From IMG/VR virus record IMGVR_UViG_3300020456_000005: a stretch of 64,000 nt of DNA; one strand, written 5' to 3'. The stretch comes from a virus. Position 1 is the first letter of the stretch; each line of letters begins with the position of its first letter. The notes below the pieces were generated by a model that ran no database searches, was not told the DNA's origin, and saw nothing but the letters and a program-made list of their open reading frames with translations. A program made the translations under genes and the position numbers. Of this stretch, positions 46,940 to 57,085 are shown piece after piece.

Positions 46940-47787
46940 AGGACACAATTCTCTTTGGTGATTGTCGTGAAACATTAAAAGAGTTTACTGGTAAGGCGAG
47001 GATGTGTGTAACATCACCGCCTTATTATGGTTTGAGAAACTATGGTGGTGAACAAGATCAAATTGGTCTGGAACAAACACCAGAAGAATATGTTGACAAT
47101 CTCGTAAAAGTATTTCGTGAGGTAAGAAATTGTCTTACTGATGATGGAACATGCTGGGTTAATCTTGGTGATAGTTACTATAACTATAGACCAGGTAAAG
47201 GACAAGCAATTCATAAACAATCAGTATCTAAAACTAACCAAGATTTACCTAGCACATGTGCTAGACGAGGTAACAAACTAGAAGGTCTTAAAGAAAAAGA
47301 TCTTATTGGTATTCCTTGGATGTTTGCTTTTGCTATGAGAGCAGACGGATGGTATCTAAGACAAGATATTATCTGGAATAAACCTAATCCTATGCCTGAA
47401 AGTGTACGAGATAGATGTACTAAATCACATGAGTATATCTTTTTGTTTAGCAAAAGTCAGAATTATTATTTTGATGTTGATGCTATCAAAGAACCAACTG
47501 TAGATGGTAAAGGATTGAAGCGTAAGAAAACTGTGTGGGAAGTTAAAACCAAACCATATAAAGGAGCACACTTTGCTGTGTATCCACCAGAACTAATTGA
47601 ACCGTGTATTAAATCTGGAAGTGAAGAAGGTGACATTGTATTAGATCCTTTTATGGGATCTGGTACAACTGCTTTAGTATCCAAATCATTACAAAGGCAC
47701 TATCTGGGTTGCGAATTACATGAAGATTATGGTAGACTAATTCAGAAAAGGTTGAGTGAAAAATCATTTGCAAAAATTAAATTCTAA
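46936..47787 (+). CDS. Beta-class N4-cytosine/N6-adenine DNA methyltransferase
   Basis: TSPPY motif IV near N-terminus, DPFMGSGT motif I near C-terminus. Confidence 0.9.
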   Translation: MKDTILFGDCRETLKEFTGKARMCVTSPPYYGLRNYGGEQDQIGLEQTPEEYVDNLVKVFREVRNCLTDDGTCWVNLGDSYYNYRPGKGQAIHKQSVSKTNQDLPSTCARRGNKLEGLKEKDLIGIPWMFAFAMRADGWYLRQDIIWNKPNPMPESVRDRCTKSHEYIFLFSKSQNYYFDVDAIKEPTVDGKGLKRKKTVWEVKTKPYKGAHFAVYPPELIEPCIKSGSEEGDIVLDPFMGSGTTALVSKSLQRHYLGCELHEDYGRLIQKRLSEKSFAKIKF

Positions 47788-49172
47788 TGGCTGAACGAAT
47801 TGAAGAAATTATTTTACGAAACCTTCTCTTTAACGAAGAATATTATCGTAAGGTAGTGCCTTTCTTAAAGGCAGAATATTATGAGATTTACCATGAGAAA
47901 ATTATCTACGAAGAGATTGCTGACTTCGCTAGTAAGTACGATAAAGTTCCTACTAAAGAAGTTCTTACGATTAATCTACAAAACCGTAATGATCTTACTG
48001 ACGAATCGTTCAAAGATTCGGTACAGGCAGTATCCAACCTCTCGGACGAGTGGGTTGACTACGACTGGTTGCTTGACGCCACAGAAAAGTGGTGCAAGGA
48101 CCGAGCTATATACCTCGCACTCATGCAATCAATCAAGATTGCGGACGGCGGCGATCAGAAGATTTCGCGAGATGCGATACCCTCCATTCTCCAAGAAGCC
48201 TTGGCGGTTTCGTTTGATGAACACATCGGACACGATTACATAGAACAAGCAACAGACAGATATGATTTCTACCACAGAACAGAAGAAAAGATTCCCTTTG
48301 ACCTTGATAAGTTTAACTACATTACCAAAGGTGGTCTCCCTAATAAGACTCTCAACATCGCTCTTGCTGGTACAGGCGTCGGGAAAAGTCTATTCATGTG
48401 CCACTGCGCTGGTGCCGCGCTCACTCAGGGGAGGAACGTTCTCTACATTACATGTGAAATGGCAGAGGAGAAAATTGCTGAACGAATTGATGCAAACCTT
48501 CTGAACGTTAGTATTAGAGATCTTGCTGATCTACCCGAAGTTCTTTTCTCTAGTAAAGTTAATGAGATTGCTCGTAAAACTCAGGGCAAACTTATCATTA
48601 AAGAGTATCCAACAGCGTCTGCACATGCAGGACATTTCAGGGCACTCTTAAGTGATCTTAAACTAAAGAAAGATTTCAAACCCGATATTATTTTTATTGA
48701 TTATTTAAACATATGTGCAAGTGTGAGGTACAAAGGTGCGATTGTTAACTCGTATACCTATGTTAAAGCGATTGCTGAGGAGCTCCGTGGCTTTGCTGTG
48801 GAGTGTAACGTACCTATTATTAGTGCTACTCAGACTACTCGTTCTGGTTATGGGAATAGTGATCCAGATCTTACCGATACTTCTGAGTCTTTTGGTCTAC
48901 CTGCCACTGCTGATCTTATGTTTGCCCTTATCTCTACTGAGGAGTTGGAACAACAAGGTCGCATCATGGTCAAACAACTTAAAAACAGATACAATGAAAC
49001 CGCTGCCTCACGAAAATTCATGGTGGGAATTGACAGATCAAAAATGAAGCTGTATGATGTAGCGGATGACGCATCAGAAATTAATATTTCAGATGAAGAT
49101 ACGGGAGAACAGTTCTCCCAGTTTGCAGAATCCCAAACTAGATTATCCAAATTTGCCGAGTGGAATGTATGA
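47787..49172 (+). CDS. g41: Replicative helicase gp41
   Basis: AGTGVGKS, IDYLNI, ATQTTR, KQLKNRY. Confidence 0.96.
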   Translation: MAERIEEIILRNLLFNEEYYRKVVPFLKAEYYEIYHEKIIYEEIADFASKYDKVPTKEVLTINLQNRNDLTDESFKDSVQAVSNLSDEWVDYDWLLDATEKWCKDRAIYLALMQSIKIADGGDQKISRDAIPSILQEALAVSFDEHIGHDYIEQATDRYDFYHRTEEKIPFDLDKFNYITKGGLPNKTLNIALAGTGVGKSLFMCHCAGAALTQGRNVLYITCEMAEEKIAERIDANLLNVSIRDLADLPEVLFSSKVNEIARKTQGKLIIKEYPTASAHAGHFRALLSDLKLKKDFKPDIIFIDYLNICASVRYKGAIVNSYTYVKAIAEELRGFAVECNVPIISATQTTRSGYGNSDPDLTDTSESFGLPATADLMFALISTEELEQQGRIMVKQLKNRYNETAASRKFMVGIDRSKMKLYDVADDASEINISDEDTGEQFSQFAESQTRLSKFAEWNV

Positions 49173-50746
49173 AGATTAAAAGTATTATGGTTGTTGGCGG
49201 TGGGTCATCTGGTTGGATGACTGCTGCTGCTTTATGTAAAAAATTTGGTAAAGATATTAAAGTATCTGTTATTGAAGGAAAGAATTCCAATCCAGTTGGA
49301 GTAGGTGAATCTACTATTACTAAATTTAATTCTTATTTGAATTATATTCTTGAAATTGAAGATAAAGAGTGGATGCCTCATTGCAATGCCACCTATAAAA
49401 CTTCAATTAGATTTACTAATTTTAGAGATGGTAATGGTGAGGTATTTGAATACCCATTTGCAGGGTATCATAATGAAGATTCTTTTGGTAGGTGGTCTGT
49501 TGTCCGCGCAAAATATGATTTGGGACCAGACTCTTTCAATGAGTTTATGAATCAGGCTTATTGGTTAGCAAAACATAATAGGATGACTGACAATCCTGGT
49601 TTTGAATTTCAATTCTCATTGAAAAAAGATTCGGCATATCATTTTGATGCTGGTCTTTTTGGAAAGTTTCTTAAGAAAAGATTCTGTAAGAAAGCAAAGC
49701 ATTACATTGACGATGTTGTTGCCGTAAAAAAAGATGAAGACGGATACATCACTTCTTTAGTTGGAGATTCTGGAACTGAATACTCTGCAGATCTGTATGT
49801 TGATTGTACTGGATTTAAATCTTTACTCCTAGAAAAGGAAATGGGATCTGAGTTTGTTTCTTTCAAACCATGGTTAGATAACGATAGAGCTATTGCAACT
49901 CATTTACCATATAAAGATAAAAAGACAGAGCTCTGCAACGTTACCAATTGCACAGCATTAAGTAGTGGATGGTCATGGAATATTCCTTTATGGAATCGTA
50001 TGGGATCTGGATATGTTTACTCTAGTGATTTTATCAGTGATGATGATGCAGAAAAGGAGTTTAAAAAACATGTAGGTAATGAAGATATTGATATTCGTAA
50101 GATTAATATCCGACATGGAGTGAGAGAAAGAGGATGGGTTAAAAATGTAGTTGGTGTAGGTCTTGCGTTTGGTTTTATTGAACCACTAGAATCTACAGGA
50201 CTTGTGTCTACCCATGAAATGATTGAGCAACTAATTGAAATTCTTGATAGACGTAAGTATAATATTACTGGTTTTGATAGAGACTCTTACAACTATACTT
50301 GTCAGTTAGTTGTAACTGGATACATGTATTTTGTTTCTCTTCATTATAAACTTTCTCAAAGAAGTGATACTCCTTACTGGAAATATCAAACTGAACTTAA
50401 AGACTGGTTTAAACTTTCTGATCCTAGATTGTTTGCACAAAGAAAAGTTCATATTTCATATGATAATGGATCAACAAATCACTATGAAAATGTACATCAG
50501 ATGCATTCTCTAGCACACAGATGGGATCCTGAAAAACATGGTATTGCATATATCATGGCAGGCATGGGACATGTTCCTTATGCAGATTATCTTTATAAAG
50601 TCTTCTCAGATTCTGCGAAAGATAATCTTCAAGATGATGTTGATAAACTCTACAAGGAATTTAGAAACTATGTTAAAATACTAGAGGAAAAAGTTCTTAC
50701 ACTTCCAACATCTTACGAATTTCTACAACAAAACATTTATTCTTAA
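49169..50746 (+). CDS. prnA: Flavin-dependent (tryptophan) halogenase family protein
   Basis: GGGSSG, GVGEST, ATYK, YHFDA, DCTGF, WSWNIP, FIEPLESTG. Confidence 0.88.
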   Translation: MKIKSIMVVGGGSSGWMTAAALCKKFGKDIKVSVIEGKNSNPVGVGESTITKFNSYLNYILEIEDKEWMPHCNATYKTSIRFTNFRDGNGEVFEYPFAGYHNEDSFGRWSVVRAKYDLGPDSFNEFMNQAYWLAKHNRMTDNPGFEFQFSLKKDSAYHFDAGLFGKFLKKRFCKKAKHYIDDVVAVKKDEDGYITSLVGDSGTEYSADLYVDCTGFKSLLLEKEMGSEFVSFKPWLDNDRAIATHLPYKDKKTELCNVTNCTALSSGWSWNIPLWNRMGSGYVYSSDFISDDDAEKEFKKHVGNEDIDIRKINIRHGVRERGWVKNVVGVGLAFGFIEPLESTGLVSTHEMIEQLIEILDRRKYNITGFDRDSYNYTCQLVVTGYMYFVSLHYKLSQRSDTPYWKYQTELKDWFKLSDPRLFAQRKVHISYDNGSTNHYENVHQMHSLAHRWDPEKHGIAYIMAGMGHVPYADYLYKVFSDSAKDNLQDDVDKLYKEFRNYVKILEEKVLTLPTSYEFLQQNIYS

Positions 50747-51160: not shown

Positions 51161-51196
51161 CCTCCCCTCTAAATAACTAGACGGGGAGGTTTTTTT
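51161..51196 (+). promoter_or_regulatory. Terminator-like hairpin with late-promoter core in the loop and RBS in the 3' arm
   Basis: CCTCCCC-TCTA-AATAAC-TAGA-C-GGGGAGG-T7-ATG. Confidence 0.75.
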
Positions 51197-52348
51197 ATGG
51201 CTTATAATTTAATACCGTCTACGTTTTCTGATGCAGGTTCTTCTGTAAAGCATATGGATAATGCTGCAGCAGCAGAAGCATTGAGGTTATGGAATTATCT
51301 TGTCACTACATATGGCATGGAGAATCCTCTTGCATTTAATCCGAGTAACAAAAAAGCAGTAAAGATTGCTAGAGCATTACAGACAGAATTTACAAAGGCA
51401 GAGATAAAAAGGAAACTAAAACTAACCTCTCTCAATTTTGACTTTGGTGATGGTAGTAGAGGTAATCGTGGTACAGGTAATAGAGGTAATTTATTTGAAG
51501 AACAACTAGAAGCAGGTATCAATGACTGGATTGAAAATCCAGACGACTTAGCGAGTAACAAATACAAAGATTTTATTTACGGTTTAGTAAAACATTATCA
51601 CCTTGAGGATTGTATTGCAATAAGAGTAATTGCAGAAGGTGCAGAAAATAAACCTAGACCTATGAAGATTGTCAATGGACATTGGCAAATAGGAACTGCG
51701 TCACCATCAACTGGATATAATATTGGTGCTACAGTTACTGACTTAACTTTAGAATCTAAGTGTAAAGGAAAACCATTGCACAAATATTACCTCTCATTAA
51801 AGATGAGTGGAACTACTAATCTATCTAATCTGGGATTGAAGAAAGAAGTATTTCCAGTTGATCAAGTAAAAGCATCTCAGATTACAACCGAAGCTGGTAA
51901 AGCTTTGATGAAAACTTTTGGATTAGATGAAGAATTATTTTGTAGAACTTTTAATGAATACCAATCAGGGAATAGGAACTTTAAAGTATTAGATTCTTCT
52001 CCAAACTATAACAAGGCATTGTTGAAAGAACTTATCAAAGGTTCCTTGGGATATGGATTCCATTATGTTCATCTTAACAAAGGTAAGATAAAACATATGG
52101 AAATTGATGAGGCATTTTTGAACAAAGCATCCAGTGCTAGTAATGTATCAATATCATATGGTGGTGAAACTGGTGGTGCAAAGAGAGTCAATATTAATCT
52201 GAAAACTCCACTGCTTGACATGTCTTTCAACATAAGAAATACTTCAGATAAAGGGTCTGCTGCAGATCCAGATCGTGTATACCCAGACAAGTTACAGTCA
52301 GGATACAAAATGAAGGGTGAAAGTATTGCAACGGTATTTAACGACTAA
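51197..52348 (+). CDS. Hypothetical protein, possible PD-(D/E)XK nuclease fold
   Basis: GNLFEEQL...VTDLTL...YYLSLK pattern; fold is inferred. Confidence 0.5.
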   Translation: MAYNLIPSTFSDAGSSVKHMDNAAAAEALRLWNYLVTTYGMENPLAFNPSNKKAVKIARALQTEFTKAEIKRKLKLTSLNFDFGDGSRGNRGTGNRGNLFEEQLEAGINDWIENPDDLASNKYKDFIYGLVKHYHLEDCIAIRVIAEGAENKPRPMKIVNGHWQIGTASPSTGYNIGATVTDLTLESKCKGKPLHKYYLSLKMSGTTNLSNLGLKKEVFPVDQVKASQITTEAGKALMKTFGLDEELFCRTFNEYQSGNRNFKVLDSSPNYNKALLKELIKGSLGYGFHYVHLNKGKIKHMEIDEAFLNKASSASNVSISYGGETGGAKRVNINLKTPLLDMSFNIRNTSDKGSAADPDRVYPDKLQSGYKMKGESIATVFND

Positions 52349-53541
52349 TGGCAAATATTAAACAACTAAAACACCTAGAACATCTAGAAGATGAGATGCT
52401 TAACTATGGAGTTGAGGGTTGTAAAGCTGCTGTATCTTTTTTAAAAGAACTTCGTAAGATGTTAGGTCAGGAAGATAGTGGTGGTTTCATGCAAACCAAG
52501 TGGGATGGTGCTCCATCAGTTATATGTGGAACAGATCCTAACAGTGGAATGTTTTTTGTTGGTACTAAATCTGTCTTTGCAAAAACACCAAAGATTTGTT
52601 ATACAGATGTTGATGTTGATCTATATTATGAGGGAGATTTAGCAGAGAAATTAAAATTCTCTTTGAGATACTTTTCTACCCTAGGTATAAAAGGGATAGT
52701 ACAGGGAGACTTATTGTTTACTAGTTCAACATTAAAGACTGAAGTTATTAAAGGTGAAAAACTGCATACCTTTAGACCTAATACTATTACATATGGTATT
52801 CCTACTGACCATCCTATCGGAGTAGCAGCAGGTAGAGCAAAGATTGGAGTAGTATTTCATACACATTATAGAGGCGATGATTTTCAATCTATGCAAGCAC
52901 TTGCAGGAGCTGATGTAGATGGGTCTAATGATGCTTTAGTAGTAAAAAATGATACTCCAATGCATAAGGTTGGGTTTACATCAACTGAGATGCAAAAGTT
53001 TGATAACTACATCTCTAAGATTGAACGCATGTGTCAGATGTGTGGTGATTTTCTTGATGAATTGGTAGCAAAAACTGGTACAACAGGAGATAAAAAATTT
53101 CATATAGCATCTTACCTCAAACAATTTTTTAATAATGAAATTAAAAATGCTCGTAGCATAGGAAATGTAGATGAAGCGATGTATGACATGCTCAATTTCT
53201 ATGGTGACAAGATGGAGAAGGAACTATCAAAAATTAAAACTGTTGCGAACCTAACTGCAAAAAGAAATCTTGTATATGGCAGTCAGAATTACGTGGTAGA
53301 TAATGTATATAAATTCAAGTCAATGCTTGCTTTATATAAAGAGCTTCAGGCAGTTAAACAAATGGTTATAGATAAACTTGACCACCTAGAAGAGTTTAGA
53401 ACATACGTTCAGACTGAAAAAGGATATAAGGTTACTACTCCTGAAGGATATGTTCTTCACAAAGATGGCAGCATGATCAAGTTTGTCAATCGCATGGAGT
53501 TTGCATACAATAACTTTACTCTTCAGAAGCAATGGCGTTAA
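52348..53541 (+). CDS. Conserved phage protein (DUF6267-like) with ligase-like motifs
   Basis: EHLED, TKWDGAP, QGDL, EGYV, MIKFV. Confidence 0.6.
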   Translation: MANIKQLKHLEHLEDEMLNYGVEGCKAAVSFLKELRKMLGQEDSGGFMQTKWDGAPSVICGTDPNSGMFFVGTKSVFAKTPKICYTDVDVDLYYEGDLAEKLKFSLRYFSTLGIKGIVQGDLLFTSSTLKTEVIKGEKLHTFRPNTITYGIPTDHPIGVAAGRAKIGVVFHTHYRGDDFQSMQALAGADVDGSNDALVVKNDTPMHKVGFTSTEMQKFDNYISKIERMCQMCGDFLDELVAKTGTTGDKKFHIASYLKQFFNNEIKNARSIGNVDEAMYDMLNFYGDKMEKELSKIKTVANLTAKRNLVYGSQNYVVDNVYKFKSMLALYKELQAVKQMVIDKLDHLEEFRTYVQTEKGYKVTTPEGYVLHKDGSMIKFVNRMEFAYNNFTLQKQWR

Positions 53542-54095
53542 ATTGCAACAAGTGTTATTTTACTTTTGGTAGGTTTCAACCACCAACAACTGGACATAAA
53601 GAGAATTTTGCTGGTGTGAAACAAGCAGCAGGGTCGCACGACTATCGCATCTACATTTCACAAACTGTAGATAAGAAAGGTAGCAATCCTCTCCCACCAG
53701 ATCGCAAATTACATTACATGAATAAGATGTTCCCAGAACATCGTGGTAAAATATTTTCTGGACCAAAACAACCTGTTGCTATCCTTCAGGATTTGATGCT
53801 TGCTGGATATAATGAAGTGATATTCCTTGTAGGTTCGGATAGAGTTGCTGCTATGCAATTCCTCCATAAATATAACGGAAAGGATTTCTCATTCAGGAAG
53901 ATTGAAATAAAATCTTCTGGGAGTAGAGACGCTGATGGTGATACATTCGCTATTTCAGGAACGAAAATGAGACGCGCTGCATTTGCTGGTGACTTTAAAA
54001 CATTTCGTTCTGGCATTCCTAGAGCATTAAATGATAATGATTGCCGTGCTCTTATGCAAGAGATAAAGGCAAATTTGCCCGCTAATTTTAAATGA
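53532..54095 (+). CDS. Cytidylyltransferase-like (HxGH) nucleotidyltransferase
   Basis: FGRFQPPTTGH, VGSDR, ISGTKMR. Confidence 0.85.
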   Translation: MALNCNKCYFTFGRFQPPTTGHKENFAGVKQAAGSHDYRIYISQTVDKKGSNPLPPDRKLHYMNKMFPEHRGKIFSGPKQPVAILQDLMLAGYNEVIFLVGSDRVAAMQFLHKYNGKDFSFRKIEIKSSGSRDADGDTFAISGTKMRRAAFAGDFKTFRSGIPRALNDNDCRALMQEIKANLPANFK

Positions 54096-54304
54096 AAGAT
54101 TTCAAGAAACTGAGAGAACAAGCACTCCGCCAAGCACATCGTCAGAATGATGTGATTTCTGAGGGAGATATCGTTATGTCTGCTAGAACTGGTGACAAAG
54201 GAACCGTTCATCGCACTGGTGTGAACTATGCAATTGTGGTTACAGAGGACGGAAGGATGTTTAGAGAGTGGGTAAAAGACATTCGTGCTATAAATAAACC
54301 ATAG
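54092..54304 (+). CDS. Hypothetical protein
   Basis: ATGA coupling; GD.V..G.V.R.G.NY. Confidence 0.7.
   Translation: MKDFKKLREQALRQAHRQNDVISEGDIVMSARTGDKGTVHRTGVNYAIVVTEDGRMFREWVKDIRAINKP
54289..54296 (+). promoter_or_regulatory. Late promoter TATAAATA
   Basis: Exact consensus upstream of 54325. Confidence 0.65.
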
Positions 54305-54324: not shown

Positions 54325-54864
54325 ATGGATAAGCAGAGACCTGTTAATAAAGTAGTGCATAATGATGCCTATTCTGCATCTCTAATGGAGATGTATACTC
54401 AATGGATGGACGGTGATTGCTTCCAAGGTAGCAATATTCCTGAGGCATTTGAGGGTATGGATCCTCAATCTCATGGTGCTGAAGTAGAGGACGTTACCAA
54501 GAAAAAGAAAAAGATTGACAAGAAAGAAAAGTCAGTTGCTGAAGAGGTTGTTCTTGAGCGTGAAGAGATTGAAGTTGATGGTGAAGTAATCATCATTGAG
54601 AAGAAGAAAGGTCTTGATGGCAAAGCTTGCTGGAAAGGTTACAAGCAAATGGGCACCAAGATGAAGGGTGGTAAGCGTGTTGACAACTGTGTTAAGGCAG
54701 GTTTTGAACCAGAAGGTGAGGAGATCAAAGAAAAGAAACTTGACCCAGTAGGTAAGGAAGATAAGGACGTTGATAATGATGGAGATCACGATAAGTCCGA
54801 CAAGTATCTTCTAGCACGTCGTAAGAAGGTCAGTAAAATCATTGGAATGAGCAAGAAAAAATGA
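54325..54864 (+). CDS. Charged hypothetical protein, possibly capsid-internal
   Basis: K/E-rich; CWKGYK..GTK.K..VDNCV and LDPVGKED.DVDNDGD modules. Confidence 0.65.
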   Translation: MDKQRPVNKVVHNDAYSASLMEMYTQWMDGDCFQGSNIPEAFEGMDPQSHGAEVEDVTKKKKKIDKKEKSVAEEVVLEREEIEVDGEVIIIEKKKGLDGKACWKGYKQMGTKMKGGKRVDNCVKAGFEPEGEEIKEKKLDPVGKEDKDVDNDGDHDKSDKYLLARRKKVSKIIGMSKKK

Positions 54865-56653: not shown

Positions 56654-57085
56654 GTGGACGACAATACCAATATAAACACAGCTATCCTTGAAAGATTGGA
56701 AAGAGTAGTTGAATCGCTACAAGAAAATTCAATTCAAATGGGTAAGTTGCTTGCCGTTCATAATGAAAAACTAGATAAACAGGACAGGATAGATGCTGTC
56801 TTGTTTGAGAAGGTAGAGAGTCTTCATCGTGAGGTTAACCGACAATCACTGGAGATAAAGAAAGGTTGTGAAAGAGACATCAGAAAAATTGATGAACGAC
56901 TTCGCCTCATGGAAAAGAAAATGTGGACTATTTTTGGTGGGCTTGCTATTATTAGTTTCATGGTTTCTCCACTCGGACAAACAATAATCAAACCAGTTAT
57001 TCAACCGTCACAGGACCGCTTGACAACTGGCACTCCTGTTGGTACACTACCTTCAGTGGTGATGCCCCTTAGTGAGTTATCTTGA
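56654..57085 (+). CDS. Coiled-coil protein with C-terminal TM helix
   Basis: Heptad pattern then WTIFGGLAIISFMVS. Confidence 0.65.
   Translation: MDDNTNINTAILERLERVVESLQENSIQMGKLLAVHNEKLDKQDRIDAVLFEKVESLHREVNRQSLEIKKGCERDIRKIDERLRLMEKKMWTIFGGLAIISFMVSPLGQTIIKPVIQPSQDRLTTGTPVGTLPSVVMPLSELS
57020..57048 (+). promoter_or_regulatory. Sigma70-like early promoter for primase/nrd operon
   Basis: TTGACA 57020-57025, 17-nt spacer, TACACT 57043-57048. Confidence 0.7.

Follow-up and report, generated by a model that had tools for sequence, protein, structure and literature searches.

T4-like cyanomyoviruses are without g30, rnh, rnlA, pseT, denA, denB and ndd (PMC1079782, PMC2984593), and reviews from 2005, 2010 and 2021 record no recognisable DNA ligase, RNA ligase or polynucleotide kinase encoded by them (PMC1079782, PMC2984593, PMC7824862). 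Likewise, most 'subgroup 2.1' jumbo phages, for which the example proteins come from P-SSM2, are without any known DNA ligase (PMC7824862). In repair systems, the usual companions of RNA ligases are kinase, phosphatase and Pol-beta ('RlaP') enzymes (PMC7824862). The coupled genes at positions 51197–54304 of a 64,000 nt stretch of viral DNA (IMG/VR virus record IMGVR_UViG_3300020456_000005; hereafter the window) follow the same logic as the T4 Pnkp–Rnl1, Pnkp–Hen1 and RlaP-associated ligase systems, in which a ligase and end-modifying enzymes are encoded together. They differ from these systems in that the window encodes no kinase or phosphatase with them, that the constant partner is an enzyme of the HxGH nucleotidyltransferase superfamily, and that the module is near-universal in its phage family and not sporadic; in relatives, kinase, phosphatase and Pol-beta nucleotidyltransferase domains are fused to its members. 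We put at roughly 0.55 the probability that the ligase-like protein of the set (P2, Pfam family DUF6267) and its nucleotidyltransferase partner (P3/P4) form a two-enzyme polynucleotide end-joining module of marine T4-like phages (Kyanoviridae and relatives).

The window is part of a T4-like cyanomyovirus, with Synechococcus phage Sf-CH1b as its nearest public relative (~80 % nucleotide identity across 63 % of the region under study). The overlapping or coupled genes described in an earlier note on this DNA are four plus-strand open reading frames (ORFs) joined by TAATG between P1 and P2 (1 nt overlap), a 10 nt overlap between P2 and P3, and ATGA between P3 and P4 (4 nt overlap). The ORF of P5 begins 20 nt after P4. 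The features are as follows.

51161–51196, + strand: hairpin CCTCCCC…GGGGAGG, then a run of seven T, directly before the P1 start; read from the sequence
51197–52348, + strand: P1, 383 aa, phrog_8438, no Pfam family
52348–53541, + strand: P2, 397 aa, Pfam DUF6267 (PF19782)
53532–54095, + strand: P3, 187 aa, nucleotidyltransferase of the HxGH superfamily (TxGH variant), assigned from phrog_3041 (E 4e-69), DUF6267 fusions and weak matches to nicotinamide mononucleotide (NMN) and nicotinic acid mononucleotide (NaMN) adenylyltransferases
54092–54304, + strand: P4, 70 aa, detached C-terminal domain of the HxGH protein, with uL2 SH3-like and Spt5 KOW profile matches
54325–54864, + strand: P5, 179 aa, highly charged, possible fifth member; phrog_4359, with P5-like segments in other phages

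DUF6267 and its ligase-like features

P2 is a strong member of DUF6267 (Pfam, E 2e-121), a family of 2,255 clusters at 50 % identity of which no mention was found in the literature searched. By tblastn the family is present in 466 phage records, nearly all from cyanomyoviruses; the other carriers are Pelagibacter phage HTVC008M, Methylophilales phage Melnitz, two Vibrio phages, one Pseudoalteromonas phage and Stenotrophomonas phage DLP6. KWDG, QGDL, EGYV and IK, which the earlier note had assigned to motifs I, III, IV and V of the ligases and capping enzymes, are all present and in the canonical order of the superfamily: a KxDG motif I with its lysine (KWDG, residues 51–54), QGDL (119–122), EGYV (366–369) and IK (377–378, within IKFVNR at 377–382). 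A IIIa-like FRPNTITY lies at 142–149 and HLEHLED at 9–15. An alignment of 105 homologues (28–59 % identity) shows no variation at K51, D53, G54, D121, E366, G367 and K378, and the motifs are therefore not due to chance. The N-terminal motif is conserved across this alignment as HxEHxED; R382 is nearly invariant, and the second lysine of motif V is not conserved. All motifs are kept in the short form of P-SSM2 (296 aa), with KIDG as motif I.

Weak matches to Pfam RNA_lig_T4_1 (PF09511) were obtained for 3 of the 105 members (best E 6e-4), and neither P2 nor any of the 105 matched PF01068. In an hhalign comparison, PEGYVLHK-DGSMIKFV of P2 aligned over 21 columns to IEGYVAVMKDGSHFKIK of T4 Rnl1 (residues 221–242), spanning motifs IV and V; E227, G228, K240 and K242 within this segment are the essential motif IV/V residues of Rnl1. 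No match was found between the DUF6267 alignment and the single T4 Rnl2 sequence with hhalign, and PDB searches with the sequences of P1, P2 and P3 were uninformative. Additionally, 12 of the 105 DUF6267 proteins weakly match Pfam SWI2_SNF2 (PF18766; best E 2e-4), in P0315 inside the DUF6267 region itself (residues 385–509); these matches are probably spurious.

The earlier note had made its reading of P2 depend on a ligase nucleotidyltransferase fold, and this fold is present in an AlphaFold2 model built on the DUF6267 alignment (pLDDT 94.7, pTM 0.91). Each motif is predicted to lie in a beta-strand: K51 at the end of strand 47–51 before a turn, D121 in strand 117–125, E366–G367 at strand 367–372 and K378 in strand 375–380. 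A helical module of ~150 residues (~200–348) is predicted to be inserted between motif IIIa and motif IV, and only one short helix (382–391) follows motif V in the model, which is thus without an oligonucleotide/oligosaccharide-binding (OB) domain. Foldseek returned no significant match for the model. In a structural comparison, about 40 of the top 50 rows were ligases, the remainder being helical proteins that match the insert; RNA ligases were the nearest structures, and DNA ligases scored about 2 Z units below them. It is thus very probable that DUF6267 has the fold of a divergent covalent nucleotidyltransferase with RNA-ligase architecture.

Compared with the RNA ligases (Naegleria NgrRnl (Rnl5), T4 Rnl1 and trypanosome REL1/T4 Rnl2), P2 has no significant match to the family models PF09511 and PF09414, and its helical insert replaces the N- or C-terminal accessory domains of Rnl1, Rnl2 and Rnl5. 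The invariant HxEHxED and the obligate HxGH partner also set DUF6267 apart; we know of no RNA ligase with such a partner. Compared with ATP-dependent DNA ligases (T4 gp30, Chlorella virus ligase, archaeal Lig), P2 has no OB domain, motif VI or PF01068 match and is not of the gp30 type, and the two families are present together in phage DLP6. No capping enzyme was among the structural matches listed and no triphosphatase or methyltransferase partner was seen, leaving a capping role for P2 unsupported.

The HxGH partner and its linkage to DUF6267

Synteny was compared across 80 diverse IMG/VR loci with DUF6267 relatives (33–91 % identity). A P3-type gene is located downstream on the same strand in 59 of these, and most exceptions stop at a contig edge. 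Of the genes for which the earlier note had required co-occurrence, P2 and P3 are thus together at most of these loci, and P1 is found at 13 of the 80. By tblastn P3 is present in 556 phage records, and within cyanophages its record counts parallel those of P2. Among 26 long DUF6267 representatives, at least 11 also contain an HxGH domain in the same protein, with both domain orders found. HTVC008M and Melnitz share the order helicase, one upstream gene, DUF6267, small ORF and large 'cytidyltransferase', and C48C1 and DLP6 have the same core order from the upstream gene onward. In DLP6 (L089, 8910–10211), the gene after the DUF6267–HxGH pair is annotated as 'exodeoxyribonuclease VII large subunit', another nuclease-type neighbour.

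P3 carries GRFQPPTTGH (residues 13–22) and ISGTKMR (141–147). Its placement in the HxGH superfamily by the earlier note is borne out, with the amendment that the motif is T-x-G-H (TTGH, 19–22) and not a literal HxGH. PHROG 'cytidyltransferase' families are matched strongly (phrog_3041, as above); PF01467 (CTP_transf_like) is matched at 15.2 bits, below its cut-off of 21, and by several fused relatives above it, at 27.7–30.8 bits. A PDB profile search gave weak HxGH-superfamily matches only, to MJ0951 (UPF0348), MJ0541 (listed as hypothetical), PPAT and NadR; MJ0951 is presumably TmcAL-related and MJ0541 presumably the M. jannaschii NMN adenylyltransferase (NMNAT). ESM Atlas added nothing for P3. 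NCBIfam matches of P3 and four relatives are almost exclusively to NMN/NaMN adenylyltransferase models, at 18–28 bits against cut-offs of 112–341: P3 scores 18.8 bits with TIGR01526 (cut-off 341), and its relatives reach at most 28.6 bits, and at most 27 bits with TIGR00482 (cut-off 112). Because these scores are far below the cut-offs, P3 is, as far as its sequence can tell, a superfamily relative nearest the NMNATs and not an orthologue. The motifs GRFQPxTxGH and ISxTxxR are common to P3 and NadR, NadM, NadD, PPAT and TmcAL/citrate-lyase ligase; however, the first His of HxGH is replaced by Thr in P3, its scores are far below the cut-offs of those families, its family carries, or here precedes, an SH3/KOW-like domain, and its relatives are fused to DUF6267, Pol-beta nucleotidyltransferase, P-loop kinase, PAP2 or ATP-grasp domains.

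P4 is a separate ORF only in close relatives of the window phage and forms a single protein with P3 in more distant viruses. Its profile matches are nearly all to the SH3-like barrel of ribosomal protein uL2, along with Spt5 KOW, and are weak but uniform (E 0.04–1); P4 is probably an SH3/KOW-like beta-barrel of a small nucleic-acid-binding type. In many cyanophage records and in phrog_4808, P4 homologues are labelled 'ribonucleotide reductase alpha subunit', 'NrdB' or 'aerobic NDP reductase small subunit', probably a propagated annotation error, since a 70 aa SH3/KOW-like domain cannot be that enzyme. P5 carries a CWKGYK…NC motif (residues 102–122, CWKGYKQMGTKMKGGKRVDNC), and it belongs to phrog_4359 and shares phrog_22379 with P4 and phrog_764 'cytidyltransferase'. 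In other phages, related segments either follow P3/P4 proteins or are joined to P4-like and 'cytidyltransferase' proteins (phrog_22379, phrog_764), and P5-like sequence lies downstream of DUF6267 in 34 of the 80 loci; P5 is a possible fifth module member.

Fusions extend to further enzyme types. In P0315 an AAA_33/Zeta-toxin-type P-loop kinase is joined to DUF6267. HxGH proteins of other viruses carry a kinase of this type (L044), Pol-beta-type nucleotidyltransferases (L035, L049, L055) or a PAP2 phosphatase (L055) as fused domains. NadR is likewise built as a kinase fused to an HxGH domain, and the kinase–HxGH fusion is ambiguous for this reason. In L058 (5537–8671) and P0380 the HxGH domain is fused to a RimK-type ATP-grasp ligase and a PF05618 Zn-protease, P0380 also containing DUF6267, a combination that may point to ligation of peptides or amino acids as part of the module's chemistry.

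Proposed function

From these folds, invariant residues, synteny and fusions, together with the absence of other ligases (below), we infer a chemistry, a substrate and a division of labour for the end-joining module. By analogy with known ligases, Lys51 of KWDG would attack a nucleotide cofactor, most likely ATP, to give enzyme-AMP; the AMP would then move to a 5′-phosphate end, and attack by a 3′-OH would seal the break. P3 and P4, an HxGH nucleotidyltransferase tethered to an SH3/KOW-like barrel, would be the obligate partner, working on the same nucleic-acid ends or supplying or regenerating the nucleotide cofactor of the ligase. End-healing-type domains fused to the partner in distant relatives suggest a heal-and-seal system. 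The substrate most likely includes RNA, in the repair or processing of broken RNA or at RNA-containing nicks; RNA is slightly favoured because of the RNA-ligase-like architecture, the lack of an OB domain, the healing-type fusions, the KOW-like P4 and the coexistence with a DNA ligase in DLP6. The slot upstream of P2 is filled interchangeably by several D…SxK nuclease-like genes, of which P1 is one; the breaks may be its work, or alternatively P1 may be a selfish or host-DNA-cutting passenger.

Two observations speak for rival readings, which are set out below. P3-like genes also stand alone in jumbo enterobacterial and Pseudomonas phages, with no other ligase beside them and no DUF6267 nearby. 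Additionally, the module is located in the replication and recombination region, between the g41 helicase (47787–49172) and the g61 primase (downstream at 57072), and in HTVC008M and Melnitz beside uvsX and helicase, a placement that speaks for DNA sealing.

The upstream nuclease-like gene

The E...TD.....Y.SLK pattern for which the earlier note had likened P1 to PD-(D/E)XK nucleases is present (E101, T181–D182, Y198-L-S200-L-K202), preceded by a Gly-rich loop at 83–97, and E101, D182, S200 and K202 do not vary among 26 homologues, the most distant of which has 22 % identity. A HinP1I/MspI-type PD-(D/E)xK endonuclease fold covers residues ~98–376, after an N-terminal extension of ~95 aa; P1 thus combines the restriction-endonuclease core fold with a catalytic-type D…(D/E/N/Q/S)xK triad. 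The triad was matched to MspI and HinP1I by spacing and not by residue-level superposition, the motifs being TD-X17-NxK in MspI and SD-X18-QxK in HinP1I, so that TD-X17-SxK of P1 has the MspI spacing. The fold is common to P1 and both enzymes at ~10 % sequence identity. P1 differs from them in its extra N-terminal region and Gly-rich loop, in the Ser in place of Asn/Gln before the Lys, and in being encoded by a lytic phage, coupled to a ligase-like gene and without an adjacent methyltransferase. No methyltransferase is present in the coupled set, and the neighbours of P1 are MazG upstream and DUF6267 downstream, which is not a restriction–modification context.

P1 has 268 close homologues. The similar genes that the earlier note had placed in other cyanophages are plentiful for P2 and P3; for P1, tblastn found only 24 phage records. 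Among the 68 loci with enough sequence, the slot upstream of DUF6267 is occupied by P1 in 13, by phrog_1462 (~460 aa) in 28 and by phrog_22045 (~276 aa) in 4, and 24 of these 45 occupants overlap or directly adjoin the start of DUF6267. The commonest occupant, phrog_1462 (L009, 884–2401; L042, 6508–7881; and 28 further loci), has a conserved DKWNPADIW…GISLKK, and its nearest named clusters in ESM Atlas are the HaeIII and HpaII restriction enzymes, at a sub-threshold 0.83. KTDI…CSMK of phrog_22045 aligned, at low probability, to VTDL…LSLK of P1. The upstream genes of HTVC008M and Melnitz belong to phrog_22045, and that of DLP6 groups with phrog_1462-like ORFs. To judge from these alignments, a D…SxK nuclease-like gene is a frequent, not universal and replaceable companion of DUF6267.

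It is only a little short of an even chance that P1 is functionally unrelated to P2–P4, being a mobile or selfish restriction- or homing-type endonuclease, or a host-DNA-degrading nuclease, in a permissive slot, with its coupling to P2 an expression convenience only. This explanation concerns P1 alone and is compatible with any other reading of the module. It would account for a gene so much rarer than P2 (24 against 466 phage records) in a slot that holds at least three different families, or none; however, the D…SxK signature is found in every occupant family examined, and overlapping or abutting stop–start codons recur in distant lineages (HTVC008M, Melnitz, C48C1, DLP6), beyond what random insertion would give. 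Cyanomyoviruses, lacking denA, denB and ndd, must degrade host DNA by other means (PMC2984593), a role that would suit such a nuclease.

The hairpin at 51161–51196 would mark the 5′ boundary of the coupled gene set, and its 3′ arm also reads as a Shine–Dalgarno-like GGAGG. Between the g41 helicase and P1 are a tryptophan-halogenase-like gene and then MazG. The former (49160–50746, + strand) encodes a 528 aa flavoenzyme of the tryptophan-halogenase family (PF04820, E 9e-102; phrog_2928), and its start overlaps the stop of the helicase.

Absence of other ligases

Ligase absence was assessed in the genomes of relatives, not in that of the window phage itself. Searches for PF01068, PF01653, PF09414 and PF09511 found no match in any of six complete genomes that carry DUF6267, those of P-SSM2, HTVC008M, C48C1 and Melnitz and two from IMG/VR (196 and 177 kb); T4 served as positive control for both RNA-ligase families (PF09414, PF09511) in part of the searches, and the PF09511 search of P-SSM2 and the two IMG/VR genomes ran without a matching control. 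PF01068 is also absent from six further phage-sized contigs (121–194 kb) with DUF6267 from metagenome-assembled genomes (MAGs). DLP6 is the exception, with a gp30-type ligase in addition to the DUF6267–HxGH pair, and no Rnl1 or Rnl2 was found in it. By these profile searches, DUF6267 is the only ligase-superfamily gene in these marine phages, and is not simply a gp30 substitute, since DLP6 has both.

AAX44695.1 (PSSM2_317), the 'standalone ligase DNA-binding domain' of Iyer et al., was considered and is not DUF6267; it is a different gene of 207 aa with no homologue in the window. A scan of cellular genomes for DUF6267 gave phage-like MAG contigs only and no genuine cellular homologues. Contigs of cyanomyovirus-genome size are present in GTDB 'cellular' genomes: L093 (193,981 bp, a 'Synechococcus sp.' MAG), L095 (189 kb, a Prochlorococcus single-cell assembly) and L104 (188 kb, a Nonlabens xiamenensis isolate). 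These are probably co-assembled or mis-binned phages, and that of Nonlabens may be a T4-like phage carried with the isolate.

The alternative that P2 is the long-sought DNA ligase of T4-like cyanophages, sealing Okazaki fragments and recombination or repair nicks in place of T4 gp30, is unlikely, at perhaps one chance in four, yet it is a serious rival because the module is near-universal, lies among replication genes and belongs to phages without another ligase. P3 would then make NAD+ from NMN and ATP as cofactor, or recycle NMN as the leaving group, and P1-type nucleases would nick or resolve DNA. The presence of DUF6267 in essentially all cyanomyovirus records, the lack of canonical ligase families in the six Kyanoviridae-type genomes and the recorded absence of g30 (PMC2984593, PMC1079782, PMC7824862) are consistent with this, as are the KxDG form of motif I, shared with DNA ligases, and the weak best matches of P3, all to NMN/NaMN adenylyltransferases. 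However, P2 has neither the OB domain nor the motif VI that DNA ligases need, its closest structures are RNA ligases, and P3 scores far under the NMNAT cut-offs. DLP6 has a canonical ATP-dependent DNA ligase and a full DUF6267–HxGH pair, so the two are not interchangeable there, and host LigA could cover DNA sealing, as argued previously (PMC2984593).

The least supported reading, and an improbable one, is a role in nucleotide/NAD+ metabolism or counter-defence, with P3 a true NMN adenylyltransferase rebuilding the NAD+ that host defence has depleted and the P2 lysine nucleotidylating a protein or small molecule (e.g. AMPylation): the restriction of P3 family matches to NMNAT models, MazG pyrophosphatase upstream in 30 of the 80 loci, the solitary P3-like genes of jumbo phages and the RimK-type ATP-grasp and Zn-protease fusions would fit it, but every NMNAT score is far under its cut-off, the module showed no Nampt, Nudix or other partner for NAD salvage, PADLOC gave no defence-family match, the whole P2 motif set is that of polynucleotide ligases, and the likeness of P4 to nucleic-acid-binding barrels, with the Pol-beta and kinase fusions, points to polynucleotide substrates. 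The cut/seal, capping or NAD/counter-defence proposal of the earlier note is accordingly supported in part, by the ligase-like and nuclease-like folds; its capping branch is unsupported, and its NAD/counter-defence branch has the least support.

Significance

The folds described here are known. New are the placement of DUF6267 in the ligase superfamily, its helical insert, its obligate pairing with an HxGH protein, and the finding that a globally abundant phage family has DUF6267 as its only ligase-like gene. No prior description was found in the literature searched, and to our knowledge a pairing with an HxGH nucleotidyltransferase has not been described for any ligase. With this assignment DUF6267 becomes a new ligase family, marked by its unusual helical insert and its constant HxGH partner, and widespread wrong labels ('hypothetical', 'cytitidyltransferase', 'ribonucleotide reductase alpha subunit') would be put right. 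Ligases this compact, without an OB domain, could also interest enzymologists and biotechnologists.

T4-like cyanophages and their relatives infecting SAR11 and Methylophilales (the latter hosts presumably OM43) are among the most abundant marine viruses, and the assignment of the near-universal DUF6267 to the ligase superfamily provides a concrete and easily tested candidate for their missing ligase activity. A stronger version of the end-joining module, which we regard as unlikely, is that DUF6267 and its HxGH partner make up a ligase system of a new, two-component kind, and that the dominant T4-like phages of the ocean have no other nucleic-acid ligase; the pair would seal both replication nicks and nuclease-made breaks. 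The HxGH enzyme would in that case pre-adenylylate 5′-phosphate ends, applying NMNAT chemistry to a polynucleotide, or regenerate a dinucleotide cofactor in place. If true, this would answer the twenty-year-old question of how cyanomyoviruses manage without gp30.

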